Source: Anaerosomatales bacterium (GTDB lineage Bacteria; Actinomycetota; Coriobacteriia; Anaerosomatales; SLCP01). From it: a DNA stretch of 64,000 nucleotides. Of this stretch, positions 1 through 16,403 are shown piece by piece. Each line of letters opens with the position of its first letter. The stretch's first letter is position 1. The position numbers and the translations under genes are program-made. Location of the stretch: assembly GCA_029210645.1 (NCBI GenBank), contig JARGFT010000007.1, forward strand, positions 55,297 to 119,296, in the 5' to 3' direction. A model generated the notes under the pieces. That model ran no database searches. It saw only the letters and a program-made list of their open reading frames with translations, and was not told the DNA's origin.

Positions 1-500
1 GCGAGCCGCAGGCCCGCGCCCTCGACAGCGGCAACCGTCGCCTCGACCGTATCCCGCTGGGCCGCGACGAGGAGCACCTCCATCATGTGCTCGTCGGAGG
101 GCGTCATGTAGTCACCGATGATGTGGAAGTCGAGGATGGCGTCCTCGATGGGTATCGGGATGTAGTCCTGCGCCTGGTACTGGATCGCGCCCTGCAGCTC
201 ATCGCGCTCCATGAACGGCAGATCGATGAGGCGCACGACGACCTTCTGGTTGGAGATGCCGGTCACCACGTCACGGCCCTTGATGCCGGGCTGGCGCCAC
301 AGCTCGCGGATCGCGGAGGCGACCGCCGAGGGATCGACGATGTCTCCATCGACGACAGCGCCCATCGGAACGTCAACGCGTCCGTACGACGCAAGCGTCG
401 GGGAGCCGGAGGATGACTTGAGCACGGCGGCGCGAACGTGGTCAGTCCCGATGTCGAGACCCACCGGCGGTGCGCCCGAGCCCATGGAGATGAAGCCCAC
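1..500 (-). CDS. pilM: Type IV pilus assembly protein PilM (actin-like ATPase), N-terminal part. The gene continues past the window start.
   Basis: Minus-strand translation from GTG at 500 (GGAGGA 5 nt upstream; in-frame stop at 531-533) reads VGFISMGSGAPPVGLDIGTDHVRAAVLK...ISNQKVVVRLIDLPFMERDELQGAIQYQAQDYIPIPIEDAILDFHI, the PilM pattern. It is absent from the ORF track because no stop lies inside the window. Confidence 0.8.
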   Translation of the reverse strand, partial: MGFISMGSGAPPVGLDIGTDHVRAAVLKSSSGSPTLASYGRVDVPMGAVVDGDIVDPSAVASAIRELWRQPGIKGRDVVTGISNQKVVVRLIDLPFMERDELQGAIQYQAQDYIPIPIEDAILDFHIIGDYMTPSDEHMMEVLLVAAQRDTVEATVAAVEGAGLRL

Positions 501-659: not shown

Positions 660-2171
660 TCATTGGCGCGCCCACGCACCCTTGGTCAGCAGCGGGGAGT
701 TTCGTCCCGGCAGACTGTCCGGCAGGAAGTCCGGCAGATCCGGGTCGGTCACGAGGTGCACGTTGTTGACTCCCATGTTGATGTGGCCGGCGACGATCGA
801 GCCGACGAACAGTTCGTTGTTGTTGAAGCGGATCGAGCCGCCGGCGTAGAGCGCCAGCGAGTGCTCGGGCAGGTCGCCGGGTCCGCTGTTTGAGTCCGTG
901 CCCGAGATCGACATGTCGACCGGCGTTGCGATCCCGATCGCGTGCCGGGCGTCCATCTTACGACCGGTCGTGTTGGGGTAGATGTCGCCCAGCACCGTCA
1001 CCGGGCCGTTGACGATAAGCGTACCGTTACCCTCGTACTTGATGGCGCGGTCGATAGTGAGCGGTCCGTCGACAAAGACGGTGCCGTCGAGGTAGAGGAC
1101 CTGGTTGATGTGGTCGTAGGCGAAGTCATCCCGCATGTTCGGGTCGGTGTATCCGTAGCCGTACCATGCACCGAAGCTTGCGGGGCCGATGGTGAGGCCC
1201 GTCGTGCCCTGTCCGGCCGGTGAGGGCTCGCTGCCGGCGCCGACGTACTTGTAGCCGAAGCGGTGCACGTCCGGGGTCGCGTTTCGGGCATAGCTGCGTG
1301 TGAACGTACCTGTGTTGGGTGGATCGACGGTCCGGTAATCGAGCGGAGTCGGGTTGGTTCTATCCGTCTCGTAGTTGTTCCCGGCAACCTCGCCCTCACG
1401 CATGCCCAGAAAGTTGTCGACCGATTCCTCCTGGGCCTTCTGGGCCGCCTCGAGCAGCTCGTAATCGAGCAGTCGCGGCAGCTCGATCCGGGGTACGGAC
1501 TGCGAGACCGAGCGGTAGAACGCGTTGGCGCCCGGCTCGGGATACGCACCCGAGACGTAGAGCTGGATCGGCATAGACTCCTGACCGAGTTCGGCGCTGC
1601 CCTGCCGGGTCAGCGCGCCGTCGACGAAGAGCGGGCCCTTGTGGACGTATGAGTAGCCCGACATCTCGACGGCACCGCGGACGTAGAACGGCCCGGTGAC
1701 GTTGCTGTTGCCGTTGATTCCGCCACCACCTGCGGTCAGGGACTCCTGGTTGCCGGCTGCGAAGATCATCTCCCACAGGTTGATGTAGAAGAAGCGCACG
1801 ACGACCGTCTCGGTGAAGCCGGTCCTGTCCGTCCCGGTCGACCTGAGTTCGTACTCGGAGTTCTCTAGACGCGTCACCATTACCTCGTAGGTGCCGTCAG
1901 AGATCGTGCCGGTCGCAGGGAAGTTGCCTGTCGAGAAACCGGTCCGGTAGACCTGCTCGAGGGCGGCATCGACCCCGGCGTTCGCGATCTGGAACGCAAT
2001 CGTCTCGCCCTGGGTGCGGGTCGTCTCCTGGAGCGCGTTACTCGCCAGCGCGAAACTTGCGATCGAGATCACGGTGAGCACCGAGATGACGCCCATAACG
2101 AGCGGCATGGCAATGCCCTCGTCGCGCCGCATCATCGCCCGCAGTGTCTGCATGTACCCCACCCCTACCAC
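660..2171 (-). CDS. PilX-like pilus-associated protein (large, possible tip or adhesin component)
   Basis: N-terminus MRRDEG-IAMPLVMGVISVLTVISIASFAL resembles the PilX N-terminal hydrophobic segment (no Glu5). The remainder is Gly/Asn-rich and beta-helix-like. It overlaps the upstream pseudopilin gene by 7 nt and lies between the minor pilins and pilM. Start is ambiguous (2171, 2153 or 2135). Confidence 0.55.
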   Translation of the reverse strand: MVGVGYMQTLRAMMRRDEGIAMPLVMGVISVLTVISIASFALASNALQETTRTQGETIAFQIANAGVDAALEQVYRTGFSTGNFPATGTISDGTYEVMVTRLENSEYELRSTGTDRTGFTETVVVRFFYINLWEMIFAAGNQESLTAGGGGINGNSNVTGPFYVRGAVEMSGYSYVHKGPLFVDGALTRQGSAELGQESMPIQLYVSGAYPEPGANAFYRSVSQSVPRIELPRLLDYELLEAAQKAQEESVDNFLGMREGEVAGNNYETDRTNPTPLDYRTVDPPNTGTFTRSYARNATPDVHRFGYKYVGAGSEPSPAGQGTTGLTIGPASFGAWYGYGYTDPNMRDDFAYDHINQVLYLDGTVFVDGPLTIDRAIKYEGNGTLIVNGPVTVLGDIYPNTTGRKMDARHAIGIATPVDMSISGTDSNSGPGDLPEHSLALYAGGSIRFNNNELFVGSIVAGHINMGVNNVHLVTDPDLPDFLPDSLPGRNSPLLTKGAWARQ

Positions 2172-2737
2172 TGCCTCAGTCGGAACTGGATGCGACGGGA
2201 GTCCGAGAGCACCCGTTCACCATGCGAGCTCACCACGTTCACGATCACTGACCTGGCGTCGGAGGCGACCGAGCCCATCGAGGTGATCTCCTCGTTGAGG
2301 TCCTCGGTGAAGTACCGGAAGAGCGGTTCTGCCTCGGCCACGTTCACGTTGTTCTCGGAGATGGTCCAGTCCTGGATGACGCGCTCCACCAGGGTGCGCT
2401 GGGCATTGAGCTCCTCGACCCGGTAGTGAAGCGTGCCGTCTGTAGTGGCCTCGATGCGGACCCGCTCCATCTTGTTGTTGAGATCACGATCGGTCAGCAC
2501 CACCACGTGGTAGGGCGAGGCATCCTCGATCGACGAGTTCTGCACCAGGATCGTGTCGATCACGAGTAGCGGCGAGGCGACCTCGTTGGTGAAGCGCGCC
2601 TGGCGGTCGCTCGCCCGGCTCGCCTGGACCATGGCGAACATCGAGCCGTACACCACACCGATCACCACGCCGATGAGGCCCATGACCACGATCAGCTCGG
2701 AGAGCGTGAACCCCTTGTCGTCCCGGTAGGCTCTCAT
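2165..2737 (-). CDS. Minor pilin / pseudopilin with prepilin-type N-terminal cleavage-methylation motif
   Basis: MRAYRDDKG|FTLSELIVVMGLIGVVIGVVYG is the classic G|FTLxE class III signal. ATG at 2737 lies 1 nt after the stop of the upstream gene. Confidence 0.75.
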   Translation of the reverse strand: MRAYRDDKGFTLSELIVVMGLIGVVIGVVYGSMFAMVQASRASDRQARFTNEVASPLLVIDTILVQNSSIEDASPYHVVVLTDRDLNNKMERVRIEATTDGTLHYRVEELNAQRTLVERVIQDWTISENNVNVAEAEPLFRYFTEDLNEEITSMGSVASDARSVIVNVVSSHGERVLSDSRRIQFRLRQW

Positions 2738-4366: not shown

Positions 4367-5185
4367 TCACCCCGTGACCAGCGCAAGGTACATGCGGACG
4401 ACATCGGGTCCGACGAGCGCCGCGACGATACCCCCGAGGGCGAGGAACGGGCCGAACGGGATCTTGGTTCCAAGACCGTTTCCCGAGCGGGCCGCGGTGA
4501 TGATCCCGACCACCGCACCGAAGAGACTCCCGATGAAGAGCGAGAGCAGAACGTACGGGCCGAGGAACAGGCCCATCGCTCCGAGGAGCTTCACGTCCCC
4601 CATCCCGAAGCCGGAGCGCCCCCGCACGCCGGCGTAGAGCGCCGCGATCCCACCGCTGAGCCCTGCGCCCAGAACTGCGCCGAGAAGCGCCACGAGGAGC
4701 GGTGAGGCCTGCGCGCCGGTCAGCGGGACCCACTGCACCGATGCGAACTGCGAGACGGTCGCCCCGATCAGGCCGAGGACAGCCAGTACCGCCACGATCG
4801 GATTGGGAAGACGCATCGTGTCCAGATCGATGAAGGTGAGGATGAGCAGCGTCCAGAAGAACAAGCCTGCGATGACCGCCTGAACGCCGACCCCGTAGGT
4901 CAACGCCGCCGTCAGCCACAGCAGGGCCGAGAGCAGCTCGACGGCCGGGTAGCGGCTCGCGATGGGCTCACCGCACGAGCGGCAGCGAGCGCGCAGGAGG
5001 ATCCAGGAGATCACGGGGACGTTGTCGTACCAGCGGACGGGAGCGCCGCAGGACGGGCAGTGGGAGCCGGGTGTATTCAGCGACTCCCCTCTCGGGAAAC
5101 GCCAGATGACGACGTTCGCGAAGCTACCCACGAGCAGTCCGAACACGAACATCGCCACGGCGAAGAATGTGAGATCGGTGATCAT
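4367..5185 (-). CDS. pilD: Prepilin peptidase / N-methyltransferase (A24 family)
   Basis: FFAVAMFVFGLLVGSFANVVIWRFP...CPSCGAPVRWYDNVPVISWILLRARCRSCGEPI (CxxC...CxxC) followed by a polytopic membrane domain with GMGDVKL. Confidence 0.9.
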   Translation of the reverse strand: MITDLTFFAVAMFVFGLLVGSFANVVIWRFPRGESLNTPGSHCPSCGAPVRWYDNVPVISWILLRARCRSCGEPIASRYPAVELLSALLWLTAALTYGVGVQAVIAGLFFWTLLILTFIDLDTMRLPNPIVAVLAVLGLIGATVSQFASVQWVPLTGAQASPLLVALLGAVLGAGLSGGIAALYAGVRGRSGFGMGDVKLLGAMGLFLGPYVLLSLFIGSLFGAVVGIITAARSGNGLGTKIPFGPFLALGGIVAALVGPDVVRMYLALVTG

Positions 5186-5261
5186 GCGCCCCCTCCCGGA
5201 TATGATGGGACGAGTCTAGCGGAGAGGCGCAGTACTGTCGCGAGCGAGCTCAGACTATTGC

Positions 5262-5300: not shown

Positions 5301-5326
5301 GTCCCCGCGTAGCACGAGTACGCCCC

Positions 5327-5716
5327 TCAGAAGTGATCGTGTGGACCGCCGGAGGCAGCAGGGTTCGTGCAACTCACGAAACCAGTTGCCGAATCGTAGG
5401 TGTACCGCGCGTCGGCAACGGGGCACAGCGGCTCGTGAGCCATGTACCTGTCCGTCCCCACCAGGACGGTGGCCCAGGCGATGTCCTCACAGTCCACAAG
5501 TTGGTGACTGGGGTCTGCGGCGAGGTAGTGCTGTACGGCGCCTTCGATCATTCGCATGTTCGCATGACAGGCCCGCTCCTGCGTGAGCGCGCGGGCTGCG
5601 TTGAAGACCGGGATCGCGATCGCGACGAGGATACCGATGATGAGAACAACAACCATGAGTTCGACGAGCGTGAACCCCTGCTGATTGCTTCTGTATCGCA
5701 GCGGCGTACCTTCCAT
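5327..5716 (-). CDS. pilA: Type IV pilin (second tandem paralog)
   Basis: Internal ATG at 5716 with GGAGG SD. MEGTPLRYRSNQQG|FTLVELMVVVLIIGILVAIAIPVFNAARA..., 4 Cys, C-terminus GGPHDHF. The ORF-track start 5809 is an over-extension. Confidence 0.8.
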   Translation of the reverse strand: MEGTPLRYRSNQQGFTLVELMVVVLIIGILVAIAIPVFNAARALTQERACHANMRMIEGAVQHYLAADPSHQLVDCEDIAWATVLVGTDRYMAHEPLCPVADARYTYDSATGFVSCTNPAASGGPHDHF

Positions 5717-5762
5717 CAAGACCACCTCCTCGCAGGCTGCACGCGCGTTACCCCTACGCGTC

Positions 5763-5790
5763 CTATCGGCATGTTGAGCATCTGACTTGA
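5763..5790 (-). promoter_or_regulatory. Sigma-28-type promoter upstream of the second pilin gene
   Basis: Minus strand reads TCAAGTCA-N12-GCCGATAG, about 46 nt upstream of ATG 5716. Confidence 0.55.
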
Positions 5791-5855
5791 CGGCTGACCG
5801 TTCGGCCACGGGTCCCGCGGCGCCCTGGGAACGCGCACCTCTCAGGACCCTGCCA

Positions 5856-5901: not shown

Positions 5902-5922
5902 GACTTGGACCTATCGTGAATC

Positions 5923-6303
5923 CTAGTAGTGAGCGTGCACACCGGCGGGGCAGACCGTGAGGCCGCCGCCCGTGCCGTCCGCAGCAGGCGCGGTGATCAG
6001 GTACGTACCGGCACCGGGATTGAACGGGCAGGTCGGGGCGTCGACGAGCAGGCTTGCGCTGACGAGGTCACCCGCACTCGCCATGGCGGTGCCGAGCGCG
6101 TGGGTGGTATCGGCAGCAAGCCACTGCTGCACAGCGCCCTCGATCGTGCGCTGGTTGGCCTGGCAGGAACGCTCCTGGGCGGTCGCACGAGCTGCGTTGA
6201 AGACGGGGATGGCGATCGCAACAAGGATACCGATAATAAGAACGACGACCATCAGCTCTACGAGGGTGAAGCCCTCATCACTCTTCCGGAACATCTTGAA
6301 CAT
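5923..6303 (-). CDS. pilA: Type IV pilin (first tandem paralog, likely major pilin)
   Basis: Internal ATG at 6303 with AAGGAGG SD. MFKMFRKSDEG|FTLVELMVVVLIIGILVAIAIPVFNAARA..., 3 Cys, C-terminus AGVHAHY. The ORF-track start 6501 overlaps pilC and is an over-extension. Confidence 0.85.
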   Translation of the reverse strand: MFKMFRKSDEGFTLVELMVVVLIIGILVAIAIPVFNAARATAQERSCQANQRTIEGAVQQWLAADTTHALGTAMASAGDLVSASLLVDAPTCPFNPGAGTYLITAPAADGTGGGLTVCPAGVHAHY

Positions 6304-6379
6304 GTCCCGCACCTCCTTCTCCCTTTCGGGCGATCCGGTGGCCCCCCTCATGGCGGCCACTCGCTTGCTAACACAGGTG

Positions 6380-6406
6380 TTATCGGCAGCGCATCGGTGG
6401 ACTTGA
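6380..6406 (-). promoter_or_regulatory. Sigma-28-type promoter upstream of the first pilin gene
   Basis: Minus strand reads TCAAGTCC-N11-GCCGATAA. The -10 octamer is identical to the FliA consensus and the spacer length is identical. It lies about 76 nt upstream of ATG 6303. Confidence 0.6.
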
Positions 6407-6430
6407 GGGGATTTCTCAGAATCTTCCGCG

Positions 6431-7651
6431 CTACTGCACCAACGTGATGACTTGGAACATCGGAAGGTAGAGCGCGACCACCATGGTGCCGACGATCGCA
6501 CCGAGGGTGGCCATCATGAGCGGCTCGATGAGCGAGGTCAGACCGTCAACGGCGGTGGCAACCTCTTCGTCGTAGAAGTCGGCGATCTTGTTGAGCATCT
6601 GATCCAGGGCGCCGGTCTCCTCGCCCACCGCGATCATCTGCACGAGCATCGAGGGGAAGACTTTCGACTCGGAGAGCGGCTTGGCGATCGTCTCGCCTTC
6701 CTTGATAGCCGAGCGCGTCTTCTTCACGGCCTGCGCGACCACCTCATTACCCGAGGTGTCGGCCACGATGTCGAGTGCCCCGAGGATCGGCACACCCGCC
6801 GACACCAACGTCCCGAACGTCCGGGTGAACTTGGCGAGCGCGATCTTACGGATCATGCTGCCGAACACCGGCATCTTGAGTTTGGTGCCGTCCCAGATGA
6901 GCTTGCCGCTGACCGTACCCTTCCACCAGCGGAACGCGAAGATGAACGCGACGAAGCCCACGATCAGGAAGAGCCCACCGATGCCGGACACGAAGTCAGA
7001 GGCATCGACAAGCATCTGCGTCATGAACGGCAGCTCTCCGCCCATCGAGGAGAACATCTCCTCGAAGGTCGGCACGACGAAGATCATCATCGCGGCGAGG
7101 ATGATCAGCACGAGCGCACCCATCGCCACCGGGTAAGTCATGGCAGACTTGATCTTGCCCTTGAGGGTGAGTTCGGCTTCGAAGTGGTCCGCGACGCGCA
7201 CCAGGACCTCGTCGAGCACACCACCGGTCTCGCCGGCGCGCACCATGTTCACGAAGATCGGCGGGAACACCTTGGGGTGCTTGCTCATGGAATCGGAGAG
7301 TGACTGGCCGGCCTCGACGTCGTTGGCGACCTGCTGGATGATCTCCTGCAGCCCCTTGCTCTCGGTCTGCTCGGCAAGGATGGTCAGGCACTTGGTGAGC
7401 GAGAGGCCCGCGTTGATCATCGTGGCGAACTGCCGGGCGAAGATGGCAACGTCTTTGACCTTGACCCCGGTCCCGAACTTGATCTGACCGATGGCAGCGA
7501 GTTGGGACTGCTGATCGAGCTCGAGGATGATGTAGCCCATCTCACGGAGCTTGCCGCCGACCGCCTCCCGGCTGGCACCCTCGAGCGAGCCCTTGACGAT
7601 CTTGCCGGTACGGTCGCGCACGGAGTAGTTGTAGACGGCCATCGAACGCAC
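6431..7651 (-). CDS. pilC: Type IV pilus platform protein PilC (GspF family)
   Basis: 406 aa with two GspF repeats (FARQFATMINAGLSL..., FTRTFGTLVSAGVPIL...), three TM segments, C-terminus LYLPMFQV. Confidence 0.9.
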   Translation of the reverse strand: MRSMAVYNYSVRDRTGKIVKGSLEGASREAVGGKLREMGYIILELDQQSQLAAIGQIKFGTGVKVKDVAIFARQFATMINAGLSLTKCLTILAEQTESKGLQEIIQQVANDVEAGQSLSDSMSKHPKVFPPIFVNMVRAGETGGVLDEVLVRVADHFEAELTLKGKIKSAMTYPVAMGALVLIILAAMMIFVVPTFEEMFSSMGGELPFMTQMLVDASDFVSGIGGLFLIVGFVAFIFAFRWWKGTVSGKLIWDGTKLKMPVFGSMIRKIALAKFTRTFGTLVSAGVPILGALDIVADTSGNEVVAQAVKKTRSAIKEGETIAKPLSESKVFPSMLVQMIAVGEETGALDQMLNKIADFYDEEVATAVDGLTSLIEPLMMATLGAIVGTMVVALYLPMFQVITLVQ

Positions 7652-7712
7652 TCCTCGTCATCGTGTGTCCCGCCCTCGGGCGGTCATCTCCTCGGCCTCC
7701 CGAGGAGAGCTC

Positions 7713-9389
7713 CTACACGATGACGCGCAGGATCTCCTCGACGGAGGTGGTCCCCATCCGGACCTTCTCGAGCCCATCCTGTTTGAGGGTGAGCATCCCT
7801 TCGGCGACGGCGGTTCTCTTGATCTCCTCGGCGGTAGCCCCTGCGACTGCGAGCCGGCCTATCTCCTCGGACACGAGAAGCACCTCGTGCACTCCCAGTC
7901 GTCCGAGGTAGCCGGTTCCGCCGCACTTCTTGCAGCCGACCGCCTTGAAGATCCTCTCAGGCAGGTTATCGGCAGGAAAGCCGGCGTCTATAAGCGTTTG
8001 CGGCTTGGGCACGTACTCTTCCTTGCACGAGGGGCACAGCCTGCGCGCGAGTCGCTGCGCGAGCACGCAGTCGACCGCGGATGCCACGAGGAAGGGCTCC
8101 ACACCCATCTCCACCAGGCGCGTCACCGCTCCGGACGAGTCATTGGTGTGCAGGGTCGAGAGCACGAGGTGGCCGGTGAGCGCGGACTCGATTCCGATGC
8201 GCGCCGTCTCCTGGTCCCGGATCTCTCCGACGAGGATGATGTCGGGCGAGCACCGCAGGAACGACCGCAGCGCGCGGGCGAAGGTCAGACCGGCCCTCAC
8301 GTTGACCTGGCACTGGTTGACGCCCGGGACCCGGTACTCGACCGGGTCCTCCGCAGTGAGGATGTGCTTGTCGGGTGAGTTCAGCACGTTGATGGCTGCG
8401 TAGAGCGAGGTCGACTTGCCCGAGCCGGTGGGACCGGTCACCAGGATCGCCCCGTACGGCTTGCGGAACGACGACTCGAAGCGCGCGAGCGACTCGGGCA
8501 GGAAGCCAAGATCGCTCAGCTGCATCAGAATCGCGTCCTTGCGCAGGATCCTGAGTACGATGCGCTCACCGTACACCGTGGGCAGCGAGGAGACGCGGAA
8601 GTCGATCTTGTGACCCGAGACGGTCACCTCGCAGTGGCCGTCCTGCGGCTTGCGCGTCTCCGCTATGTCCATCTCGGCCATGATTTTGAAGCGGCTGACG
8701 ATGGATGCCTGCACGCTGCGGGGGCTGCGCATGACCTCGTGGAGCACGCCGTCAACCCTGAAGCGCACCCGCAGGTCGCTCTCTTGCGGCTCGATGTGGA
8801 TATCGCTCGCCCGCTCGCTCACGGCCTTGGTGATGATGTAGTTCACGAGCTTGACGATGGGCGCGTCCGTCGAAACACCACTCAGACTCTCCAGCTCGGC
8901 CTGGTCGAGCTCATCGGTGCCGATGATGTCGCTCGGGTCGCTGCGCTCGGCGATCTTGTAGTACGTGTCGATGGCGCCCAGGATGTCATCTTTGGTCGAT
9001 ATGCCGGCGCGGATCTCGTGTCCCGTGATGATGCGCAGGTCATCGAGTGCGAGCACGTTCTGCGGGTCGGCCATCGCGACCACGAGCGTGTCGTCGGTCA
9101 TCGAGATGGGCATGAGCGTGTAGCGTTCGGCAAGTTCACGTGGCACCGAGGCCACGGCGTTGGGATCTGGTTTGACCACCGCGAAATCGAAGTGCTCGAT
9201 GCCGATCTGCGCGGCCATCACCGACAGGATCGCGCTCTGCGTCGCGTAGCCGAGATCGACGATGACGCGTCCGAGGCGCTCGCCCGTCGCTTTGTGGACT
9301 TCGAGCGCATCGGCCAGTTGGCGCTCGGTGATGACCCCCGACCGCATCAACAACTGACCGAGCCGATGTCCCGCCCCTGCCACAGTCAT
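7713..9389 (-). CDS. pilB: Type IV pilus assembly ATPase PilB (GspE family), paralog 1
   Basis: 558 aa. N-terminal tandem RLGxxLLxxGxI...Q repeats, Walker A GPTGSGKST, Asp box DPVEYR, Walker B ILVGEIRD, His box GHLVLSTLHTN, tetracysteine CPSC...CKKC. Confidence 0.9.
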   Translation of the reverse strand: MTVAGAGHRLGQLLMRSGVITERQLADALEVHKATGERLGRVIVDLGYATQSAILSVMAAQIGIEHFDFAVVKPDPNAVASVPRELAERYTLMPISMTDDTLVVAMADPQNVLALDDLRIITGHEIRAGISTKDDILGAIDTYYKIAERSDPSDIIGTDELDQAELESLSGVSTDAPIVKLVNYIITKAVSERASDIHIEPQESDLRVRFRVDGVLHEVMRSPRSVQASIVSRFKIMAEMDIAETRKPQDGHCEVTVSGHKIDFRVSSLPTVYGERIVLRILRKDAILMQLSDLGFLPESLARFESSFRKPYGAILVTGPTGSGKSTSLYAAINVLNSPDKHILTAEDPVEYRVPGVNQCQVNVRAGLTFARALRSFLRCSPDIILVGEIRDQETARIGIESALTGHLVLSTLHTNDSSGAVTRLVEMGVEPFLVASAVDCVLAQRLARRLCPSCKEEYVPKPQTLIDAGFPADNLPERIFKAVGCKKCGGTGYLGRLGVHEVLLVSEEIGRLAVAGATAEEIKRTAVAEGMLTLKQDGLEKVRMGTTSVEEILRVIV

Positions 9390-9482
9390 GCCCTTCCCGG
9401 GCGGATACGCATCACTCCGCCCGCACCGTCTAACACTGCCTCAGCGCCATGGTACGACATCCTCCGCGCAGGCAGCCCACGC

Positions 9483-10091
9483 TCACCGCTTCCGCCGGGA
9501 GGACCTCAAGTCGTCGAGGAGCACCGCCGCGAAGCGCTGGAAGCGCGCATCCGTATCCGAACCCGGTCGCACCGCAACGCACGAGTCCCCGAACCAGAGC
9601 TCGACGGCTGCCGTCATCTCGTACCGCGGCCCCTCTGTCGCAGCAACCGTTGCAGGGGGCGCTACCGGCGCCGGCTCTGGCTCAGGCTTAGGTCGGGGCG
9701 GCGCGGGAGACTCCCTGCGACGGCGGGGCGGGGGTACAGGAACCGGGATCGGTGGCTGTGGGACCGGGGTTCGCGGCCGCGGGACCGGAATCGGCACCTC
9801 CGAGACCGGCAGGTTTGCTTCGAGGCTCTGCAGCTCCTCCTCGAGTTTGAGCTCCGGCCACCGCTGGGCCACAGCGTCTTGCGTCTGCACCGGCGCGGGC
9901 GGCGGTGCAGCGGTGTAGTCGTCCAGGTGGGCCGTCCACCACGGCTCTGCCTTGACCGCCTCGGCAGGCTCGGGATTCAGTTCGCTGAGACCGTACCGCT
10001 TGATGAGCGCACGTACCCGAACAAACGCGACAAGACCCACGAGAACAAGCAGTACGAGCGATGCAGCCGGCGCGTAGGTCTCCAGGTTCAC
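9483..10091 (-). CDS. Membrane-anchored proline-rich protein of unknown function (part of the GTPase module)
   Basis: GTG start 3 nt after the GTPase stop. One N-terminal TM helix (AASLVLLVLVGLVAFV) followed by RVRALIKR (C-terminus predicted cytoplasmic), a roughly 100-aa Pro-rich linker and a roughly 50-aa C-terminal domain (GPRYEMTAAVELWFGDSCVAVRPG...). Confidence 0.55.
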   Translation of the reverse strand: MNLETYAPAASLVLLVLVGLVAFVRVRALIKRYGLSELNPEPAEAVKAEPWWTAHLDDYTAAPPPAPVQTQDAVAQRWPELKLEEELQSLEANLPVSEVPIPVPRPRTPVPQPPIPVPVPPPRRRRESPAPPRPKPEPEPAPVAPPATVAATEGPRYEMTAAVELWFGDSCVAVRPGSDTDARFQRFAAVLLDDLRSSRRKR

Positions 10092-10094
10092 CGG

Positions 10095-10610
10095 CTACTC
10101 CATGCTCTCCATGATGCGGTAGAGAAGCGCGAGGAGCACCTGCTTGACCGACTCCCTGTCTCGGGCGTCGACGGCGAGCACCTCGACGGATTCCTCGATG
10201 CCGAGCCGTTGGCGGAGCGCCGCGAGCCGGTCCGGCGAATCCACGCGGTTCGCGGCGATCACGAACGGTACCGACGACATGTTCCGGAAGAAGCTCACGA
10301 TCGCGGTCGCGTCCCCGATCGAGCTGTCGTCTGCGGCGTCGACAAGGACCACAAAACCGAGCATACCCTCGGAGAGCGTCTCCCACATGAACGAGAACCG
10401 CTCCTGGCCCGGCGTGCCGAAGATGTAGAGCACCACCTCATCCGAGATGGTGATGCGTCCGAAGTCCATCGCGACCGTAGTCTCGCCGCCTGCAGACGAG
10501 TCGGTGACGTCTCGCTCCGTGGAGAGCACGGTGATCTCGCTGACAGACTTGATGAACGTCGTCTTCCCCGCATTGAACGGACCGGTGACGACTATCTTCA
10601 CAGACTGCAT
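10095..10610 (-). CDS. Small Ras-like GTPase of the CvnD / MglA-like (COG2229-type) group
   Basis: 171 aa. P-loop GPFNAGKTT, switch-I TTVAMDFGRI, G3 FGTPGQERF (Thr instead of Asp, as in MglA/CvnD), G4 NRVD. Close overall pattern match to Streptomyces conservon CvnD proteins as I recall them. Confidence 0.8.
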   Translation of the reverse strand: MQSVKIVVTGPFNAGKTTFIKSVSEITVLSTERDVTDSSAGGETTVAMDFGRITISDEVVLYIFGTPGQERFSFMWETLSEGMLGFVVLVDAADDSSIGDATAIVSFFRNMSSVPFVIAANRVDSPDRLAALRQRLGIEESVEVLAVDARDRESVKQVLLALLYRIMESME

Positions 10611-10629
10611 GCGGCTGTCCTGTCCCCTG

Positions 10630-12387
10630 TTACAGCTTCTTCAGACCGTCGATGACCTTCATGACGAGCGCCTTGCTGACCGCCTCGTCCCTGCGAAGAC
10701 CGGCGATCTTCCCGGAATCGGGAATGATACCCACGTTGACCGCAGGCCGGCTTCCGCGCGCGCCCGTCAACGCGCCCATCTCGTCACTCATCGCACTCGA
10801 CAGGTCCGGCTCGAACTCGTCCTCGTCGGTCTCCTCAGCGGGCACGATCTCCGCCTGAGGCTCGAGCTCGTCGAGCGATTCGAGCAGGTCGCTGAGGTCC
10901 ACGACCCCCGTCGTCTCCTGTTCGAGCGTGATGGTGAGCTCGTATCCGGGCAGCTGGTCGGGTTCCGGTTCGGGCTCGGGCGCGTGCTCGGGCTCCGGTT
11001 CCGGTTCGTGCGCGGGTTCCGGTTCGGGCGCGGGTTCCGGTTCCGGCGCGGGCTGCCACTCGAACTCAGGCTCCGGCGCCGGCTCTTCTTCCACAAGCCC
11101 CTCTGCGGACTCGACAAACCGCTCCGGAAGCTCACCGATACCGAGCGACATGAGATCGCGCTCGAAGTCGGGCTGTGCTGTCTGCGGCTCGACGACATCG
11201 GCCGTCTCGGCAACGGGCTCCTCGGCAACGGGCTCCTCGGATGGGATGTCGACGTCCTCCGCACGTTCGAGGTCAGGCTCTGCCGGCACGTACTCGACGT
11301 GCGGGGTGACTATCGTGTCCAGCATCTCGGCAAACGAGGTGACATCGTCGGTGGTCGCGGTGGCCGAAGGGCCGGTCAGGAAGGTGGGCGCCTCGGGAGC
11401 GGGCCGGGCATCGGCCGGCGGCTCGGGCTCCGGTTCGGGTTCCGGCTCCGGCACGGGTTGCCACTCGAACTCGGGCTCTGGTTCGGGTTCTGGTTCGGGT
11501 TCCGGCTCGGGCTCCGGCCCGGGCTCGACCTCGGGTTCCGGCTTGGGCTCCGGCCCAGGCTCGACCTCGGGTTCCGGCTCGGGCTCGGGTTCGGGCTCGA
11601 CCTCGGGTTCCGGCTCGGCGGCGTACTCCCCGGCAGGAACCTCTGTCGGAAGCTTCATGAAGTCCTCTTCGACCGCGAACTCCAGCAGGCCGGCCGAGAA
11701 CAGACCGTAGAGGATGCGGGCAACTTCGAAGTCGGTGCGACCGGTGTCCCGGGCAAGCTCGGCGACCGAGCGAGTGCCGTCGACCAGCAGGAGCAGGCTC
11801 CACTCGACCGGCTTGAGCGAGATCTCGAACGTGCCCTCACCGGGGGCGGTCGCCATCTTGAAGATGACGTCCATCGAGGGGACCTTCTTGCGGATTCGCG
11901 CCCACTCGTCGAGACGGCGGCTCCCCTCCATGATCACGTTCTCTATCGAGACCGTGAGCCCGATGTCCTCGTCGACCACCTCGGGAAGGAGTTCGAAGTC
12001 GAACTCGCCATCCTCCCAGCGCATGAGATCGAAGATGGTGTCCTGTATCTGCTCCTGCACGAAGGCCTCGAGGACCTTCTCGGTGATGTAGCCCTCGTCG
12101 ACGAGCACCTGCCCGAGCCGTCGGCCGCCCTCGGGCTCTGCCGAGCGGATCTCAAGAGCCTTGCCGAGCGCGCTCGGCGTGATCTTGCGTGCCGCCACGA
12201 GCCGCTCGCCCAGCAGTTCGTGATGCCAGTTGGACTGCGCGAAGAACACCTCTCCGTCGCGGAACCACACTGCCCCAGCCGCATCTCCGGGTCCGGAGAT
12301 GCGCAGCACACCGGTCTTCCTGCTGAACGTGATCAGCTGGAAGACGTCGGGTAGGCTGAAATCCTTGAGACTGCCTCTGAGGGCCAT
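10630..12387 (-). CDS. PATAN (DUF4388) domain protein with T2SSE_N/MshEN-like repeat, winged-helix-like segment and long Pro-Glu repeat linkers
   Basis: N-terminus [32 protein letters not shown]...[13 protein letters not shown] is the DUF4388/PATAN signature. Residues 58-113 form two GspE-N-like repeats (second is [24 protein letters not shown]). Residues about 195-238 ([40 protein letters not shown]) are wHTH-like, as in DUF742/CvnC. Two PE-repeat tracts. Confidence 0.75.
10957..11085 (-). repeat. In-frame Pro-Glu low-complexity repeat (copy 2) containing [15 protein letters not shown]
   Basis: Encodes [42 protein letters not shown]. The DNA is degenerate GGYTCSGG-type hexamer repeats. Confidence 0.85.
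11416..11619 (-). repeat. In-frame Pro-Glu low-complexity repeat (copy 1) containing [15 protein letters not shown]
   Basis: Encodes [66 protein letters not shown]. It shares the FEWQP core with copy 2. Confidence 0.85.
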
Positions 12388-12435
12388 CGGTTCCGTCGGT
12401 GCCCTTCCCGGCCGGCTGGTGCGGCCGTTCGATTG

Positions 12436-13110
12436 CTAGCGAAGTATCTCAGCGATGGTATCGGCAGCAGCACGCATGTCGTAGAGCACAAGGCCGAGTT
12501 TGGCCTCCCGGCGCGCGAGGACGGTAAGCACCGCTCGACCGCCGACCTCGACAAGCAACACGTACCCATCCGCACCCTCGATGAACACCTGCGTCAGAGA
12601 GCTCCGACCGAGTTCGGCGGCAGCCCGCTCGCCGAGAGCGAGGATCGCTGCCGACATCGCACCGACCCGGTCCTCATGCATACCCTCGGGCAGCGCCGAG
12701 GCGATGATGAAGCCGTCCAGGCTGACCAGCGCTGCTGCCTCGATATCCGAAGCGTCCTCCATGAGCTCCTCGAGGGCGGTGCGTAGACGCGCCTCCCGGT
12801 TCGAGACTCTGCGGGGAGCGGCAGCAGGTGCTTCCGCGGGTGGCGGCGAGGCCTGGGCCTGAGGCGCAGGCGCTGGTGGCGTCGGCGCCGGAGCCTCGGG
12901 AGCTGGTGGCGCCGGAGCGGGCTCGGGCTGCACAGCAGATGGCTGCGGCGCCGAAGGCGGCGTGTCGGCCACCGGCGCGGCCTGCGGAGCAGGAGCCGGC
13001 GGCACTATCACTGGCGGGGCGGCCCCTTCGCCACCCTCATCGAGCATCTCATCGTCGATGTCGCCAAGCAGGTACTTGTCGATCCCCTCATCGGACACTG
13101 TCGATGCCAC
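12436..13110 (-). CDS. Roadblock/LC7 (MglB/CvnB-like) domain protein with N-terminal Pro/Ala-rich region
   Basis: The C-terminal roughly 115 aa, LEELMEDASDIEAAALVSLDGFIIASALPEGMHEDRVGAMSAAILALGERAAAELG...GYVLLVEVGGRAVLTVLARREAKLGLVLYDM, match the Roadblock/LC7 pattern. Residues about 28-100 are PAPAPQ-type low complexity. Start is uncertain (GTG 13110 abuts the SD; GTG 13098 or ATG 13047 are possible). Confidence 0.75.
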   Translation of the reverse strand: MASTVSDEGIDKYLLGDIDDEMLDEGGEGAAPPVIVPPAPAPQAAPVADTPPSAPQPSAVQPEPAPAPPAPEAPAPTPPAPAPQAQASPPPAEAPAAAPRRVSNREARLRTALEELMEDASDIEAAALVSLDGFIIASALPEGMHEDRVGAMSAAILALGERAAAELGRSSLTQVFIEGADGYVLLVEVGGRAVLTVLARREAKLGLVLYDMRAAADTIAEILR

Positions 13111-13246
13111 CTCCCCTTTCCCGTGAACCGCGCCTCGTCAACGGCGAATCCGAGCACGTGACGAACCGCGTCCCCTCCCCGCAAGTCTCTCACGAAGCAG
13201 TGGTCCCTACAACCGAGAAGCACCTCTACGCTGCGAAAACGCTGGT

Positions 13247-14923
13247 TCACACGACGACGCGCATGATCTCCTCGATCGACGTCAGCCCCATGCGCACCTT
13301 CTCGAACCCGTCGACCTTCAGCGTCTTCATGCCCTCCTCGATCGCCTGGGCCATCAGCTCGTCGGTCGACGCGTTCTCAACCGTCATGCGCTCCATCGTC
13401 TCGGACATCGTCATCACCTCATGGATACCCATGCGGCCGCGGTACCCGATATCGTTACACTTCCTGCACCCCTTGGCGCGATAGAGACGGGGCGGATTGC
13501 CCGGTTCGAACGGAAAACCGATACGGGCGAGTGCTTCCTCCTCGGGCACGTACTCCTCCTTGCAGTCCGGGCAGAGCCGCCTGGCCAGACGCTGCGCAAG
13601 GACGCACGTGATCGCCGATGCGGTCAGGAACGGTTCGATCCCCATCTCGGTGAGGCGCGTGACGGCCGAGGGGGCGTCGTTCGTGTGGAGCGTCGAAAGT
13701 ACGAGGTGGCCGGTGAGCGCCGCCTCGATGGCGATCGTCCCGGTCTCGGCGTCGCGGATCTCACCGATCATGACGGTATCGGGATCCTGTCGCAGGATCG
13801 AACGGAGTGCCGCCGCGAAGGACAGGCCCGCCTTCTCGTGCACCTGCACCTGGGAGAGCCCGTTGAGCCGGTACTCGACCGGGTCCTCGACGGTGATGAG
13901 GTTCGTTCGCACGTCGTTGGTCCGGTTGATCGCGGCGTAGAGCGTCGTCGACTTACCCGAGCCCGTCGGCCCGGTCACGAGGATCGCTCCGTACGGGAGG
14001 GAGAGCGCATCGAGCAGCCTCTGGAGCGGCTGCTCCAGGAAGCCGAGGTCCTCGAGGGACATCATGATGGAGTCCTTACGCAGCAGGCGCATGACCGCCA
14101 TCTCGCCGTGAACGAGCGGCAGCACCGCGACGCGGAAGTCGACCGCATGTCCGTCGAGCACCACGCCGAAGCGCCCGTCCTGCGGGATACGCTTCTCGGC
14201 GATGTCCATGCCGGCGGAGATCTTGAGCCGGCTGATCAGCTGCCGCTGCATCTTCTTGGGGCTCCGGAAGACCTCCTGGCACACGCCGTCGATGCGGAAC
14301 CGCACCCTGAGTTCGTGCTCGTGCGGCTCCAGGTAGATATCACCGGCACCCTGGCGGATGCCTTCGGTGACGATGAGGTTCATGAGCTTTGCGACAGGAG
14401 CGCTCTCGTCCTCGATATCCTCCTCGGCGGTCTCCTCCGACACTGTGACCGAGTCTTCGAGGTCGCCCACCATGCCGTCGACGTTGGCGTGAGCTGCTGC
14501 GAACTTGTCGATCGCCTGGACAAGGTCGCTCTCGGTGACCACGACCGGTCGGATCTCAAAGCCCGTGACGATCCTCAGGTCGTCGATGGCGATCATGTTC
14601 GCCGGGTCCGACATCGCAACCAGCAACTCGTCGTCCTCGATCTTGATCGGAAGGACGCTGTGTCGCCGAGCGAGGTCCGAGGAGAGATTGACGGCCGCGT
14701 TCGGGTCGATGTCGTAGCCGGGCAGGTCGACGAAGTCAAAGCCCAACTGCTCCGCGATGGCGCGCGCAACGGCAGTCTCGGATGCGTGACCGAGATCGTC
14801 GAGTGCGGCGGTCAGGCTCTTGCCCCCGCCAGCGGCTTCGATCGCCTCGGTGAGCTGCTCGGGTGTGATGACCCCTGCGCCGACCAACAGACGCCCGAGC
14901 CGTGCACTGCCCGCTGCACTCAT
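13247..14923 (-). CDS. pilB: Type IV pilus assembly ATPase PilB (GspE family), paralog 2
   Basis: 558 aa, roughly half the residues identical to paralog 1 by eye. GPTGSGKST, DPVEYR, VMIGEIRD, GHLVLSTLHTN, CPDC...CRKC. ATG overlaps the aroE stop (ATGA, 14920-14923). Confidence 0.9.
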   Translation of the reverse strand: MSAAGSARLGRLLVGAGVITPEQLTEAIEAAGGGKSLTAALDDLGHASETAVARAIAEQLGFDFVDLPGYDIDPNAAVNLSSDLARRHSVLPIKIEDDELLVAMSDPANMIAIDDLRIVTGFEIRPVVVTESDLVQAIDKFAAAHANVDGMVGDLEDSVTVSEETAEEDIEDESAPVAKLMNLIVTEGIRQGAGDIYLEPHEHELRVRFRIDGVCQEVFRSPKKMQRQLISRLKISAGMDIAEKRIPQDGRFGVVLDGHAVDFRVAVLPLVHGEMAVMRLLRKDSIMMSLEDLGFLEQPLQRLLDALSLPYGAILVTGPTGSGKSTTLYAAINRTNDVRTNLITVEDPVEYRLNGLSQVQVHEKAGLSFAAALRSILRQDPDTVMIGEIRDAETGTIAIEAALTGHLVLSTLHTNDAPSAVTRLTEMGIEPFLTASAITCVLAQRLARRLCPDCKEEYVPEEEALARIGFPFEPGNPPRLYRAKGCRKCNDIGYRGRMGIHEVMTMSETMERMTVENASTDELMAQAIEEGMKTLKVDGFEKVRMGLTSIEEIMRVVV

Positions 14924-15822
14924 GAACGCTCACCTCCTCCCGCGGAACGCAGTACGAGCTCCTCTTCGGCTGCACGGCGCATGACCTCGCGCGAGGATGT
15001 GCCGTGCGATTCTCCACACCAGATCTCCATCGCGGTCGCACCCTGAGCGACGAGCATCCCCAATCCGTCGACCGCGGTGGCTCCGACCGAGCGCGCCGCG
15101 ACCACGAGCGGGGTCGGCTCGGCACGGTAGATCATGTCGGCCACGATCTGGTTCGCACTCATCCAAGCAGCGGGGACCGGCGACGGGTCGCCCTCCTTCA
15201 TGCCGAGCGGAGTCGCGTTGACCACCAGGTCAGCCGCTGCGATCACCTCGCCGGCATCCTCGTCCAGAACCACGACGTCGACCGCTGTCTCCCGTGCGTG
15301 CGGGCGGGTGCGCTCTGCAAGCGCCTCGGCACTCGCCGGCGTCCGATTCACGATCGTCACCCTGCTTGCCTTGCCGAGCACCAGCGACACGAGCGCCGCA
15401 CCTGCGGCGCCTCCGGCCCCCACAAGCGCGACCGTCGCCCCCGCAGGATCGAAGTCCACGTCGGCTTTGAGTGAGTCCACGAGCCCGCGGCCGTCGGTGT
15501 TGTAGCCGATCAGGCGGCCGTCCACGCAGTGCACGGTGTTCACAGCGCCTGCCATCTGGGCGAGCATCGCGACCTCATCGCACAGATCGAGCATCACCTG
15601 CTTGTAGGGCATCGTCACGTTGAAGCCAACGAACGGAAGTACCCGTATCGCGCCGACCGCGCGGAGCAGGTCGGTCTCGTCGGCAACGGGGAGCGGGACA
15701 TAGACACAGTCGAAATCCGCCGACTCGTAGGCAGCGTTGTGCATCACCGGCGAGAGGCTCTGCTCCACCGGCCAGCCGATAATCCCCGCCAGACGTGTCC
15801 GTCCTGTGATGCGGCCGTTCAT
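14920..15822 (-). CDS. aroE: Shikimate dehydrogenase
   Basis: LAGIIGWPVEQSLSPVMHNAAYE...FVGFNVTMPYKQ...GAVNTV...GYNTDG...LVGAGGAAGA. Internal ATG at 15822 is preferred over the ORF-track start 15900. Confidence 0.9.
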   Translation of the reverse strand: MNGRITGRTRLAGIIGWPVEQSLSPVMHNAAYESADFDCVYVPLPVADETDLLRAVGAIRVLPFVGFNVTMPYKQVMLDLCDEVAMLAQMAGAVNTVHCVDGRLIGYNTDGRGLVDSLKADVDFDPAGATVALVGAGGAAGAALVSLVLGKASRVTIVNRTPASAEALAERTRPHARETAVDVVVLDEDAGEVIAAADLVVNATPLGMKEGDPSPVPAAWMSANQIVADMIYRAEPTPLVVAARSVGATAVDGLGMLVAQGATAMEIWCGESHGTSSREVMRRAAEEELVLRSAGGGERS

Positions 15823-15868
15823 CTCATATGCTCCCGACAGAGGGCATCGATGGCATCCTGGCCCGAGT

Positions 15869-16378
15869 CTACGCGAGCGGTTCCCGGCCGGCCAACACAA
15901 GCCGCTCGGCGCGCCTGAGCAGCAGGGTGTGTGGCAGGTCCGACTTCGACTGAGGCTTTACCAGCACGGTGGTCATGCCGAGGAGGTTGCCGCCGAGCAC
16001 GTCGGTGAAGATCTGGTCGCCGATGACCGCGGCATCACGCGGCGTTGCGCCGAGCGCGGCAAGCCCTTTCCGGAAGGCCGACGGGAACGGCTTGAGCGCT
16101 TTGGCGACGATCGGCAGGCCGATCAGATCGGCGACGCCCTGGACGTGCGCGTGCCAGTTGTTGGAGACCAGACAGGCATCCATGCCGAGTCCCGGAAGCG
16201 CATCGAGCCACTCCCGGACCTCGTCCGGGACGTCGCTGCGGTCCCTCGGCATGAGCGTGTTGTCGAGATCCATCAGAAGATGGCGCACTCCGGCCTCCGT
16301 GAGCATGGCGAGATCGATCTCCGTCACGCTCGAGTAGTACAGATCGGGAGCAAGCATGCCCACCCGTATCTCTCTCAT
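15869..16378 (-). CDS. YqeG-family HAD-IIIA phosphatase
   Basis: HLLMDLDNTLMPRD...LVSNN...KPFPSAF...VIGDQIFTDVLGGNLLGMTTVLVKP aligns by eye with B. subtilis YqeG. Internal ATG at 16378. Confidence 0.75.
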   Translation of the reverse strand: MREIRVGMLAPDLYYSSVTEIDLAMLTEAGVRHLLMDLDNTLMPRDRSDVPDEVREWLDALPGLGMDACLVSNNWHAHVQGVADLIGLPIVAKALKPFPSAFRKGLAALGATPRDAAVIGDQIFTDVLGGNLLGMTTVLVKPQSKSDLPHTLLLRRAERLVLAGREPLA

Positions 16379-16403
16379 GTCGTCGGCTCGGCAGCGGTTC
16401 GGG

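Follow-up and report, generated by a model that had tools for sequence, protein, structure and literature searches.

A small GTPase, a Roadblock protein and a PATAN-domain protein encoded between two pilB genes: a candidate regulatory module of Anaerosomatales type IV pili

In Myxococcus, MglA/MglB and SofG position PilB, the extension ATPase of the type IV pilus (T4P), and PilT. The Roadblock proteins MglB and MfpD act as GTPase-activating proteins (GAPs), and MfpC, a homologue of CvnC, has guanine nucleotide exchange factor (GEF) activity. Conservons are described, in papers up to 2026, as units of a kinase, a Roadblock GAP, a CvnC GEF and a GTPase, and these papers mention neither pili nor PATAN domains. 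The PATAN domain of PixE binds the N-terminal domains of PilB1 and PilC and is sufficient to switch phototaxis (Han et al.); the alpha-clip of PATAN proteins is similar to the beginning of the N1 domain of PilB/GspE, and MglA/MglB homologues are often found near PATAN genes (Han et al.). Neighbourhoods of PATAN and MglA/MglB genes have been recorded (Makarova et al., 2006; Wuichet and Sogaard-Andersen, 2014, with the GTPases as 'Group 5'). We analysed a 64,000-nucleotide (nt) stretch of DNA (the window) from an Anaerosomatales bacterium (JARGFT010000007.1, positions 55,297-119,296), in which genes for a Roadblock protein, a PATAN-domain protein, a small GTPase and a membrane-anchored protein lie between two pilB genes; coordinates below are window positions. 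On balance, we favour the reading that these four genes encode a kinase-less G-protein switch, a dedicated T4P regulator that gates pilus extension and possibly chooses between PilB1 and PilB2.

The module occupies the minus strand in the order Roadblock, PATAN, GTPase and membrane-anchored Pro-rich protein, with pilB2 upstream and pilB1 downstream (Table 1). The initial annotation of this DNA, made from its letters and open reading frames (ORFs), had placed four co-directional genes in the pilB2-pilB1 interval, and the ORF listing confirmed this, with spacings of 48 nt (Roadblock-PATAN), 19 nt (PATAN-GTPase) and 3 nt (GTPase-membrane protein). Its Roadblock, PATAN and small-GTPase assignments were upheld by Pfam profile searches, and a Pfam scan of the genes that run from aroE to the minor pilins detected no sensor kinase or receiver domain, as it had proposed. 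Both flanking genes encode the T4P extension ATPase PilB. They match T2SSE (448 bits for pilB2, 453 bits for pilB1) and MshEN (78 and 71 bits) in Pfam, and the best NCBIfam model for both is TIGR02538 (type IV-A PilB), with scores of 615 bits for pilB2 and 635 bits for pilB1, slightly under its strict cutoff of 675. PilB1 and PilB2 share 52% identity and are thus old paralogues; Walker and Zn-finger motifs are intact in both. In PilB1 both of the MshEN motifs for cyclic di-GMP (c-di-GMP) are canonical (59.6 bits against NF053729, cutoff 38), whereas PilB2 has an intact motif I but, throughout the clade, a degenerate motif II (35.2 bits, under the same cutoff). The locus has a single pilC, so the two motors would have one platform in common. 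No further copies of the module proteins were found by motif scan of the window.

The aroE stop and the pilB2 start overlap by 4 nt at 14920-14923, and aroE lies immediately 5' of pilB2 in all related loci. The overlap and the constant adjacency indicate that the pilus operon is joined to a housekeeping block, alaS-ruvX-mltG-…-HAD-aroE. A terminator-like hairpin with a 14-bp stem, 11 of its pairs GC, was found directly after the first pilin gene (5870-5901, minus strand). It stands alone as a convincing terminator in the stretch that runs from aroE to the second pilin gene. Given the short gaps, the aroE/pilB2 overlap and the lack of a strong terminator before the end of the first pilin gene, the module is most likely part of one long transcription unit running from aroE to the pilin. 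A sigma-70 promoter scan of 4000-16800 returned no sites against 1.4 expected, a result that is uninformative for an actinobacterium of 66% GC.

Gene order around the module was compared across relatives of the PATAN protein, which formed 109 clusters among 5.8e9 proteins and occurred in 526 species-level genomes. We compared the loci of the best 80 of these 526 genomes (72-94% identical, all uncultured metagenome-assembled genomes of the Coriobacteriia type) and added 80 metagenome loci, tabulating 162 related loci in total. All 80 genome loci, up to their contig ends, showed the order mltG…HAD-aroE-pilB2-Roadblock-PATAN-GTPase-variable gene-pilB1-(pilT)-pilC-pilin-pilD-minor pilins, and the metagenome loci repeated it; across the 162 loci, the sequence of genes pilB2-(Roadblock)-PATAN-GTPase-(anchor)-pilB1 shows almost no variation. 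The 3' end of a pilB gene lay immediately upstream of the module in 135 of the 162, and among loci with at least 2.5 kb of upstream sequence only one, L166, had no upstream pilB. Linkage to pil genes, whose loss in related genomes the initial annotation had named as grounds for abandoning its proposal, was therefore upheld. The core of pilB2, PATAN, GTPase fold and pilB1 was kept even where the PATAN protein was 49-66% identical to that of the window. Retention of the pilB-flanked order over such deep divergence argues that the module is a pilus regulator. The initial annotation had also suggested that the module fills the slot usually taken by pilT. This was refuted by 16 of 42 relatives with a full module, whose canonical pilT is found in the pilB1-pilC interval; in the 64-kb window itself, no pilT was found anywhere. 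A role for the module as a replacement for PilMNO was ruled out, as pilM is present at the window edge (3-500) and pilM/N/O lie downstream in relatives.

Besides ATP_bind_1, the GTPase matched the Ras (E=5e-8) and Arf (E=2e-7) profiles of Pfam. Its nucleotide-binding motifs are GPFNAGKTT (G1), ETTVAMDFG (G2), FGTPGQ (G3, within FGTPGQERF), NRVD (G4) and DAR (G5). G1, G2 and G3 are near-invariant in the Roadblock-bearing clade (67 relatives), a sign of strong constraint on the GTPase; the G4 of the window, NRVD, is replaced by NKVD in most clade members, and the Phe of NxFD is absent. In the published classification, MglA-family Groups 2-5 carry GTPGQ at G3 and TT at G2, with Thr replacing the Arg finger, whereas Group 1 (MglA proper) carries TVPGQ and the Arg finger; Group 2 (CvnD) has NxFD at G4 and DAR at G5, DAR occurring in Groups 2 and 3 (PMC4316618). 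Judged by these motifs, the GTPase is of the GTPGQ type (Groups 2-5) and falls outside Group 1, having GTPGQ and TT instead of TVPGQ and a G2 Arg finger. It has the DAR of CvnD but not its NxFD, and the published criteria place it closest to the PATAN-associated Group 5. Identity alone could not separate Group 2 from Group 5, as the GTPase is equidistant from CvnD and the Thermus type: it shares 45-47% identity with CvnD of annotated conservons (E 1e-42 to 1e-44), which bears out its earlier description as CvnD-like, and 47% over 125 amino acids (aa) with the GTPase of Thermus brockianus plasmid pTB1 (E=9e-39). The G3 motif had initially been read as the Thr-for-Asp form of MglA; that reading was off by one residue and named the wrong subgroup, since in alignment with 'DTPGHE' of IF2 it is the Gly of FGTPGQERF that aligns with the Asp of DxxGQ, making the substitution Gly for Asp.

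The window module resembles MglA-MglB of Myxococcus and Thermus in being a small GTPase and Roadblock system tied to T4P, the GAP role here being predicted. It differs in that the Group-1 TVPGQ and the intrinsic Arg finger are absent from its GTPase, in that MglAB are encoded outside the pil operon, and in that the sequences are weakly similar (E=2e-4 for the GTPase against Thermus MglA, 1.5e-4 for the Roadblock protein against MglB).

The integrity of the GTPase motifs co-varied with the presence of the Roadblock gene. In the 97 loci readable for both features, 87 had a Roadblock gene together with an intact G1 Lys and G3 Gln, 10 had neither, and none was mixed, counts that are phylogenetically clustered (the 87 loci represent about one clade, the 10 loci about six lineages). 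The G1/G3 pairs of the Roadblock-less loci were GTTT/GTPGE, GTTT/GTPGD, GTTT/GIPAP, GTTS/GTSGA, GKTA/GTPAQ and GKTT/GAPGR. That the degenerate motifs are so diverse speaks for decay having followed the loss of the partner repeatedly. The anchor gene was likewise absent from those Roadblock-less loci that reach pilB1; in these lineages pilB1 begins 9-67 nt after the GTPase gene, leaving no room for a fourth gene. As a pattern across sequences, the co-variation supports a GAP-type relationship between the Roadblock protein and the GTPase.

The PATAN protein carries a feature that the initial annotation had missed. Its match to DUF4388 (PF14332; 116.2 bits, cutoff 25) extends over aa 4-163 (nt 11899-12378) and takes in all 122 positions of the profile, interrupted by about 40 inserted residues. 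In an AlphaFold2 (AF2) model of aa 1-246 (mean predicted local confidence, pLDDT, 78), a beta-sheet/helix core is interrupted by a four-helix insertion at 59-122 and followed by a three-helix winged helix-turn-helix (wHTH). A Foldseek search of this model against the PDB found no global match and no counterpart of the core, just generic winged helices. Residues 59-113, within the insertion, scored 42.7 bits against NF053729 ('c-di-GMP motif, MshE-related'; cutoff 38), and the PATAN family profile matched the N-terminal MshEN domains of solved PilB (1.4e-8), PilF (9e-7) and the MshE-c-di-GMP co-crystal 5HTL (6e-6). MshEN is defined by tandem 24-residue motifs, RLGxx(L/V/I)(L/V/I)xxG(L/V/I)(L/V/I)xxxxLxxxLxxQ, and the insertion, or alpha-clip, aligns with the 53-residue two-motif MshEN_N bundle of MshE, PilB and PilF. 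Its motif II is canonical, with key positions at least 90% conserved. In contrast to those proteins, the motif sits inside a PATAN domain rather than heading an ATPase, and motif I of the window protein is without Arg1 and Gly10; in the pseudo-GTPase lineages, motif I is nearer the consensus. By profile comparison, then, the alpha-clip and the MshEN motif with which PilB binds c-di-GMP are homologues, and the alpha-clip is a candidate ligand-binding site. The cyanobacterial proteins PixE, PixG and LsiR likewise combine a PATAN domain bearing an alpha-clip insertion with a genetic link to the PilB extension motor. Cyanobacterial PatA-type proteins, however, have PATAN joined to a receiver (REC) domain and are driven by a phosphorelay or photoreceptor, whereas the window protein is paired with a GTPase and a Roadblock protein; no Response_reg match was found by Pfam in its 585 aa, so it is not of the PATAN-REC type.

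Downstream of the PATAN domain lie the wHTH, an acidic linker and a conserved C-terminal helix. Linker length is highly variable among relatives, the proteins ranging from about 250 to 585 aa. The initial annotation had likened the wHTH to DUF742/CvnC. The fold itself is borne out by the AF2 model, and the similarity to DUF742 stayed under the Pfam threshold: the score was 13.8 bits (E=0.054, cutoff 27), rising to 17.2 bits for a linker-deleted window construct. Linker-deleted relatives reached at best 22.3 bits, end to end; 8 of 10 constructs matched generic wHTH families alone, and none attained 27. The GGRTRP-type signature of the DUF742 N-terminus is absent from the PATAN protein, and BLAST of this protein against CvnC returned low-complexity, PE-rich matches alone. 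In profile-profile comparison, hhalign aligned the family wHTH with eight CvnC proteins at 86.8% probability (P=4e-6, 52 columns), against 0.2% for a CvnB control, and a linker-deleted construct aligned collinearly with CvnC over 73 columns to both C-termini (88%, P=3e-6). DUF742 and the module PATAN proteins end in closely similar helices. A relationship between CvnC and the C-terminal half of the PATAN protein is plausible but unproven.

The Robl_LC7 match of the Roadblock protein (PF03259; 58.9 bits, cutoff 23) covers aa 114-199 (nt 12514-12771). The domain is preceded by an acidic conserved N-terminal peptide (about aa 1-30; GIGDYFISDVDDELLDE…) and by a Pro/Ala-rich tether (about aa 31-105), both of which are missing from CvnB and MglB; the median protein length in the clade is 213 aa. 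The protein shares 30-33% identity with CvnB and with Thermus/Deinococcus Roadblocks. Its structural relatives in the PDB include CvnB5 (3leq, 1.8e-8) in addition to MglB. The closest solved relative of the Roadblock domain (window 12436-12792) is 7F8M, to which it is unexpectedly near (E=1.6e-25).

The fourth protein has a transmembrane (TM) helix at its N-terminus, followed by basic residues; a Pro-rich linker then leads to a C-terminal element, some 50 aa long, that is conserved (APVELWF..G..R.GV..G..T...F...A..L). The basic residues following the TM helix suggest that its C-terminus is probably cytoplasmic. An AF2 model (predicted TM-score, pTM, 0.22, too low for any fold match to carry meaning) has a TM helix at 3-34, a disordered middle and a beta-hairpin plus helix at 163-201. 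The sequence is poorly conserved, with 13 homologues in the 5.8e9 proteins, and matched no Pfam or NCBIfam model; most relatives have a homologous gene in the same slot, encoding a TM helix and a variable Pro-rich linker of 125-533 aa. Three of the four module proteins thus share a design that joins a folded part, through a long disordered tether, with a terminal element that is short and conserved.

The closest counterparts of the triad outside the pilus setting are found in conservons and on plasmids of Thermus and Deinococcus. In the conservons (AGPS), the order of Roadblock, wHTH protein and GTPase is that of CvnB-CvnC-CvnD; the window GTPase shares with CvnD the identity given above as well as TT at G2, GTPGQ at G3 and DAR at G5, the Roadblock protein is 30% identical to CvnB, and the wHTH and C-terminal helix align collinearly with CvnC in hhalign (88%). 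The window module differs in the absence of the CvnA kinase, in its middle protein, a PATAN protein below the DUF742 threshold, in G4 (NK/RVD vs NxFD) and in its output context, a pilus operon as opposed to cytochrome P450 genes, CvnF or MfpA. Eight bona fide conservons were examined, and each had a gene upstream of Roadblock under the name 'ATP-binding protein' or 'nitrate- and nitrite sensing domain-containing protein', either of which would be expected of CvnA. The module, initially described as conservon-like, therefore cannot be counted a conservon, because the defining kinase is absent and DUF742 is under threshold. Nor does it stand out as kin of conservons specifically, since its GTPase and Roadblock protein are about equally near the Thermus/Deinococcus plasmid triad, which is unrelated to pili. 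There, the same three protein types are adjacent (GTPase 47%, Roadblock 33% identical), and the PATAN protein has the PATAN, wHTH and C-terminal helix layout of the window, which suggests that this layout is ancestral to the triad. The Deinococcota triads differ in having no nearby pil genes, no alpha-clip, no membrane-anchor gene and no long tethers, while that of the window is fixed between two PilB paralogues. Together with the literature record, the Thermus/Deinococcus triad indicates an older unit that had already been noted.

On Thermus brockianus pTB1 (L173, 5354-11848), genes for a DUF4388 protein, a GTPGQ GTPase, a protoglobin, a hypothetical protein, a Roadblock protein, a second protoglobin, an EAL protein and an HD-GYP protein follow one another, with a GGDEF/EAL gene upstream. 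This gene order places the PATAN-GTPase-Roadblock triad within a c-di-GMP and possibly gas-sensing locus.

How might the module act on the pilus? The reading of it as a G-protein switch builds on the domain identities, the pilB synteny, the co-variation of the Roadblock and anchor genes with GTPase integrity and the homology of the alpha-clip to MshEN. The PATAN protein would serve as the output adaptor, its PATAN domain docking on PilB (at the N-terminal domain), on PilC (at the cytoplasmic domain) or on both, by analogy with PixE. The alpha-clip, as a copy of the PilB MshEN motif, may sense c-di-GMP or mimic the PilB N-terminus. The GTPase would bind the PATAN protein, probably through the CvnC-like half formed by the wHTH and C-terminal helix, and its nucleotide state would set the engagement of the adaptor with the motors; the Roadblock protein, like MglB and MfpD, would be the GAP that resets the switch. 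To judge from its architecture and co-variation, the membrane-anchored protein may keep the complex at the membrane by the pilus base. The net output would be gated pilus extension, possibly with a choice between PilB1 (canonical MshEN) and PilB2 (degenerate) on the single PilC. The initial suggestion, that the module may select, gate or localise one of the two PilB ATPases, is a reasonable hypothesis. In favour of a pilus regulator we also count the conditional piliation of Parvivirga, which bears pili solely on insoluble ferrihydrite, and, for the c-di-GMP link, the position of the Thermus brockianus triad among GGDEF/EAL, EAL and HD-GYP genes. A fuller version, in which GTP state (reset by the tethered Roadblock GAP at the membrane anchor) and a c-di-GMP-sensing alpha-clip together make the PATAN protein hand the single PilC to either PilB, and in which the switch of sister lineages has decayed to a pseudo-GTPase adaptor, is possible but doubtful. 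If true, it would be a previously undescribed control of pilus assembly, together with a natural series from active GTPase to pseudo-GTPase.

Several points weigh against a G-protein switch dedicated to T4P. The triad is also found without pil genes, which makes the link to pili a property of the lineage and not of the triad. A motif scan of the 64-kb window for GGDEF, EAL and HD-GYP found none, and the degenerate motif I of the alpha-clip in the window clade, from which Arg1 and Gly10 are gone, makes high-affinity binding of c-di-GMP doubtful. The phylogenetic clustering of the 87 and 10 loci means that the co-variation reflects few independent events. Roadblock-less lineages keep a catalytically dead GTPase-fold protein, so that part at least of the GTPase role is independent of nucleotide cycling. 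Finally, the physical contacts are ones that we infer, as are c-di-GMP binding, the GAP role and the direction of the effect on the pilus.

In one alternative, the PATAN protein is mainly a c-di-GMP receptor or a decoy that mimics the PilB N-terminus, sensing the nucleotide itself or competing with the PilB1 MshEN domain for a docking site, with a structural role for the GTPase fold and a secondary one for GTP cycling. Such a role would suit an alpha-clip that passes a curated c-di-GMP model and is homologous to the solved MshE-c-di-GMP domain, next to a PilB1 with canonical MshEN motifs and a PilB2 with degenerate motif II. It would also account for pseudo-GTPase lineages in which catalysis is gone but the PATAN protein and the GTPase fold remain, with motif I nearer the consensus, and for the placement of the Thermus triad in a c-di-GMP locus. 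The near-invariant GTPase motifs and constant Roadblock gene of the window clade, however, imply that the GTP cycle is under selection, that same clade has a degenerate motif I, and the Thermus PATAN protein has no alpha-clip at all; we regard this alternative as unlikely. In another scheme the PATAN protein and GTPase fold are constitutive parts of the motor, for example a bridge from the PilB2 to the PilB1 hexamer or from these to PilC/PilM, and the Roadblock protein and anchor are later accessories. The pilB2-PATAN-GTPase-pilB1 core is invariant and survives in several lineages with a dead GTPase and without Roadblock or anchor, as this scheme would have it. T4P machines elsewhere nevertheless function without such parts, PilM is present, the largest clade strictly keeps the catalytic residues and a GAP-type partner, which speaks for switching, and long disordered tethers are more regulator-like. 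A constitutive motor subunit is, in our view, very unlikely.

It is also conceivable that, as MglA/MglB do, the GTPase and Roadblock protein direct each of the two PilB motors to a particular place in the cell, for instance a pole, without gating their activity. MglA/MglB and SofG place PilB and PilT in Myxococcus, PATAN proteins occur near MglA/MglB homologues, and in one related locus, L083, a PATAN protein is encoded alongside a Che system and an MglA that truly belongs to Group 1. The window GTPase, on the other hand, has neither TVPGQ nor an Arg finger beside the G2 Thr and is only distantly similar to Thermus MglA (E=2e-4), the locus showed no partners resembling RomR or SgmX, and cultured Anaerosomatales are non-motile with pili all over the surface, making spatial sorting quite unlikely. 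The resemblance of the GTPase and Roadblock protein to CvnD and CvnB, the presence of a wHTH and the existence of related triads away from pil genes would instead be in keeping with conservon-like signalling whose output is not the pilus (for example gene expression via the wHTH) and which hitch-hikes in the pil operon. This we consider barely credible: the position between the pilB genes is invariant over deep divergence, the CvnA kinase is absent, the alpha-clip of the PATAN protein is PilB-derived, and the acidic/hydrophobic recognition helix of the wHTH, in an extremely acidic protein, is a poor fit to DNA binding.

All parts of the module come from known families, and the PATAN-GTPase-Roadblock neighbourhood has been recorded before. 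What appears to be new is that the triad is fixed between two PilB paralogues across a large actinobacterial lineage, that it has an extra membrane anchor and a tethered architecture, and that an MshEN-positive alpha-clip occurs in a pilus-module context. The series from Roadblock-bearing active GTPase to Roadblock-less pseudo-GTPase also appears new, as does the hinted correspondence between CvnC and the C-terminal half of PATAN-wHTH proteins. We found no published description of the arrangement in the literature covered, which took in a minority of the subscription journals.

To our knowledge, the regulation of T4P in Gram-positive bacteria, and in actinobacteria especially, is poorly known. 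As a G-protein switch dedicated to T4P, the module would provide concrete candidate regulators, conserved in hundreds of species-level genomes of a widespread subsurface lineage. The first cultured Anaerosomatales are non-motile rods with pili over the whole surface, and their description does not discuss the pil locus; such cultured relatives make the module directly testable. A 100%-identical copy of the fourth module protein, on deposit from a metagenome-assembled genome of an Anaerosomatales bacterium, puts the window in this order (formerly OPB41) of the class Coriobacteriia. The module would bridge three literatures, those on cyanobacterial PATAN-PilB regulators, on GTPase/Roadblock switches (in Myxococcus and the Streptomyces conservons) and on MshEN c-di-GMP receptors, and it offers a natural genetic experiment in which a small GTPase becomes a pseudo-GTPase while holding its operon position. 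Homology of CvnC/DUF742 to the PATAN-wHTH proteins, if confirmed, would help to explain the least understood component of conservons.

Table 1. Features of the pilus locus and of the PATAN protein (window positions)
Feature	Position	Strand	Evidence
pilB2, T4P extension ATPase paralogue, 558 aa	13247..14923	-	T2SSE E=2e-134, MshEN E=4e-22
Roadblock/LC7 protein, 224 aa	12436..13110	-	Robl_LC7 E=4e-16
PATAN-domain protein, 585 aa	10630..12387	-	DUF4388 E=1e-33
PATAN protein: alpha-clip/MshEN-like four-helix insertion	aa 58-113, nt 12049-12216	-	NF053729
PATAN protein: wHTH	~aa 190-240, nt 11668-11820	-	AF2 model, hhalign
PATAN protein: acidic PE-rich disordered linker (PE/PEPEPE low complexity)	~aa 250-540, nt 10768-11640	-	sequence
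PATAN protein: conserved C-terminal helix (…RD..V.R..L..I..GIK.L)	aa 565-585, nt 10633-10695	-	clade alignment
Small Ras-superfamily GTPase, MglA family, GTPGQ type by its motifs, 171 aa	10095..10610	-	ATP_bind_1 E=1e-18
Membrane-anchored protein, putative tether, 202 aa	9483..10091	-	TM helix and Pro-rich body; no Pfam/NCBIfam match
pilB1, T4P extension ATPase, 558 aa	7713..9389	-	T2SSE E=6e-136, MshEN 9.5e-20
pilC platform protein	6431..7651	-	T2SSF E=2e-68, two repeats
Pilin with N-methylation motif, probably the major pilin	5923..6303	-	N_methyl E=2e-8
Second pilin	5327..5809	-	N_methyl E=3e-10
Prepilin peptidase pilD	4367..5185	-	A24_N_bact E=8e-35, Peptidase_A24 3e-15
Minor pilin, 511 aa, fn3-like segment	2739..4274	-	N_methyl match; fibronectin type III E=0.004 (weak)
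Minor pilin	2165..2737	-	N_methyl match
503-aa gene beside the minor pilins, identity uncertain	660..2171	-	weak DUF7305 E=0.011, below cutoff
pilM, 5' part, gene cut by the window edge	3..500	-	tblastn with PilM of related locus L082: 66% identity/167 aa, E=4e-66

The 511-aa minor pilin (2739-4274, minus strand) could be an adhesive tip pilin. Among the related loci, frameshifted gene calls were found in the linker region of three deposited PATAN proteins (P0106, P0085 and P0094). P0106, deposited as a single 'Roadblock + DUF4388' protein, was considered as Rosetta-stone evidence and dropped, its out-of-frame Arg/Ala stretches marking a frameshifted gene call. A Roadblock-less relative, L081, carries a ParE/PhdYeFM toxin-antitoxin pair between pilB1 and pilT (11467-12086). 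In L166 (5702-11592), three tandem Roadblock genes, a gene for a 1347-aa PATAN protein and an intact GTPase gene lie beside NiFe-hydrogenase genes, and the contig stops just past the GTPase gene. In L083 (1974-11429), CheW-CheY-CheA-CheC genes are followed by genes for an 894-aa protein, a PATAN protein, a TPR/Roadblock protein, two more Roadblock proteins and a Group-1 MglA (TVPGQ), an arrangement indicating that PATAN proteins pair with both MglA subtypes.

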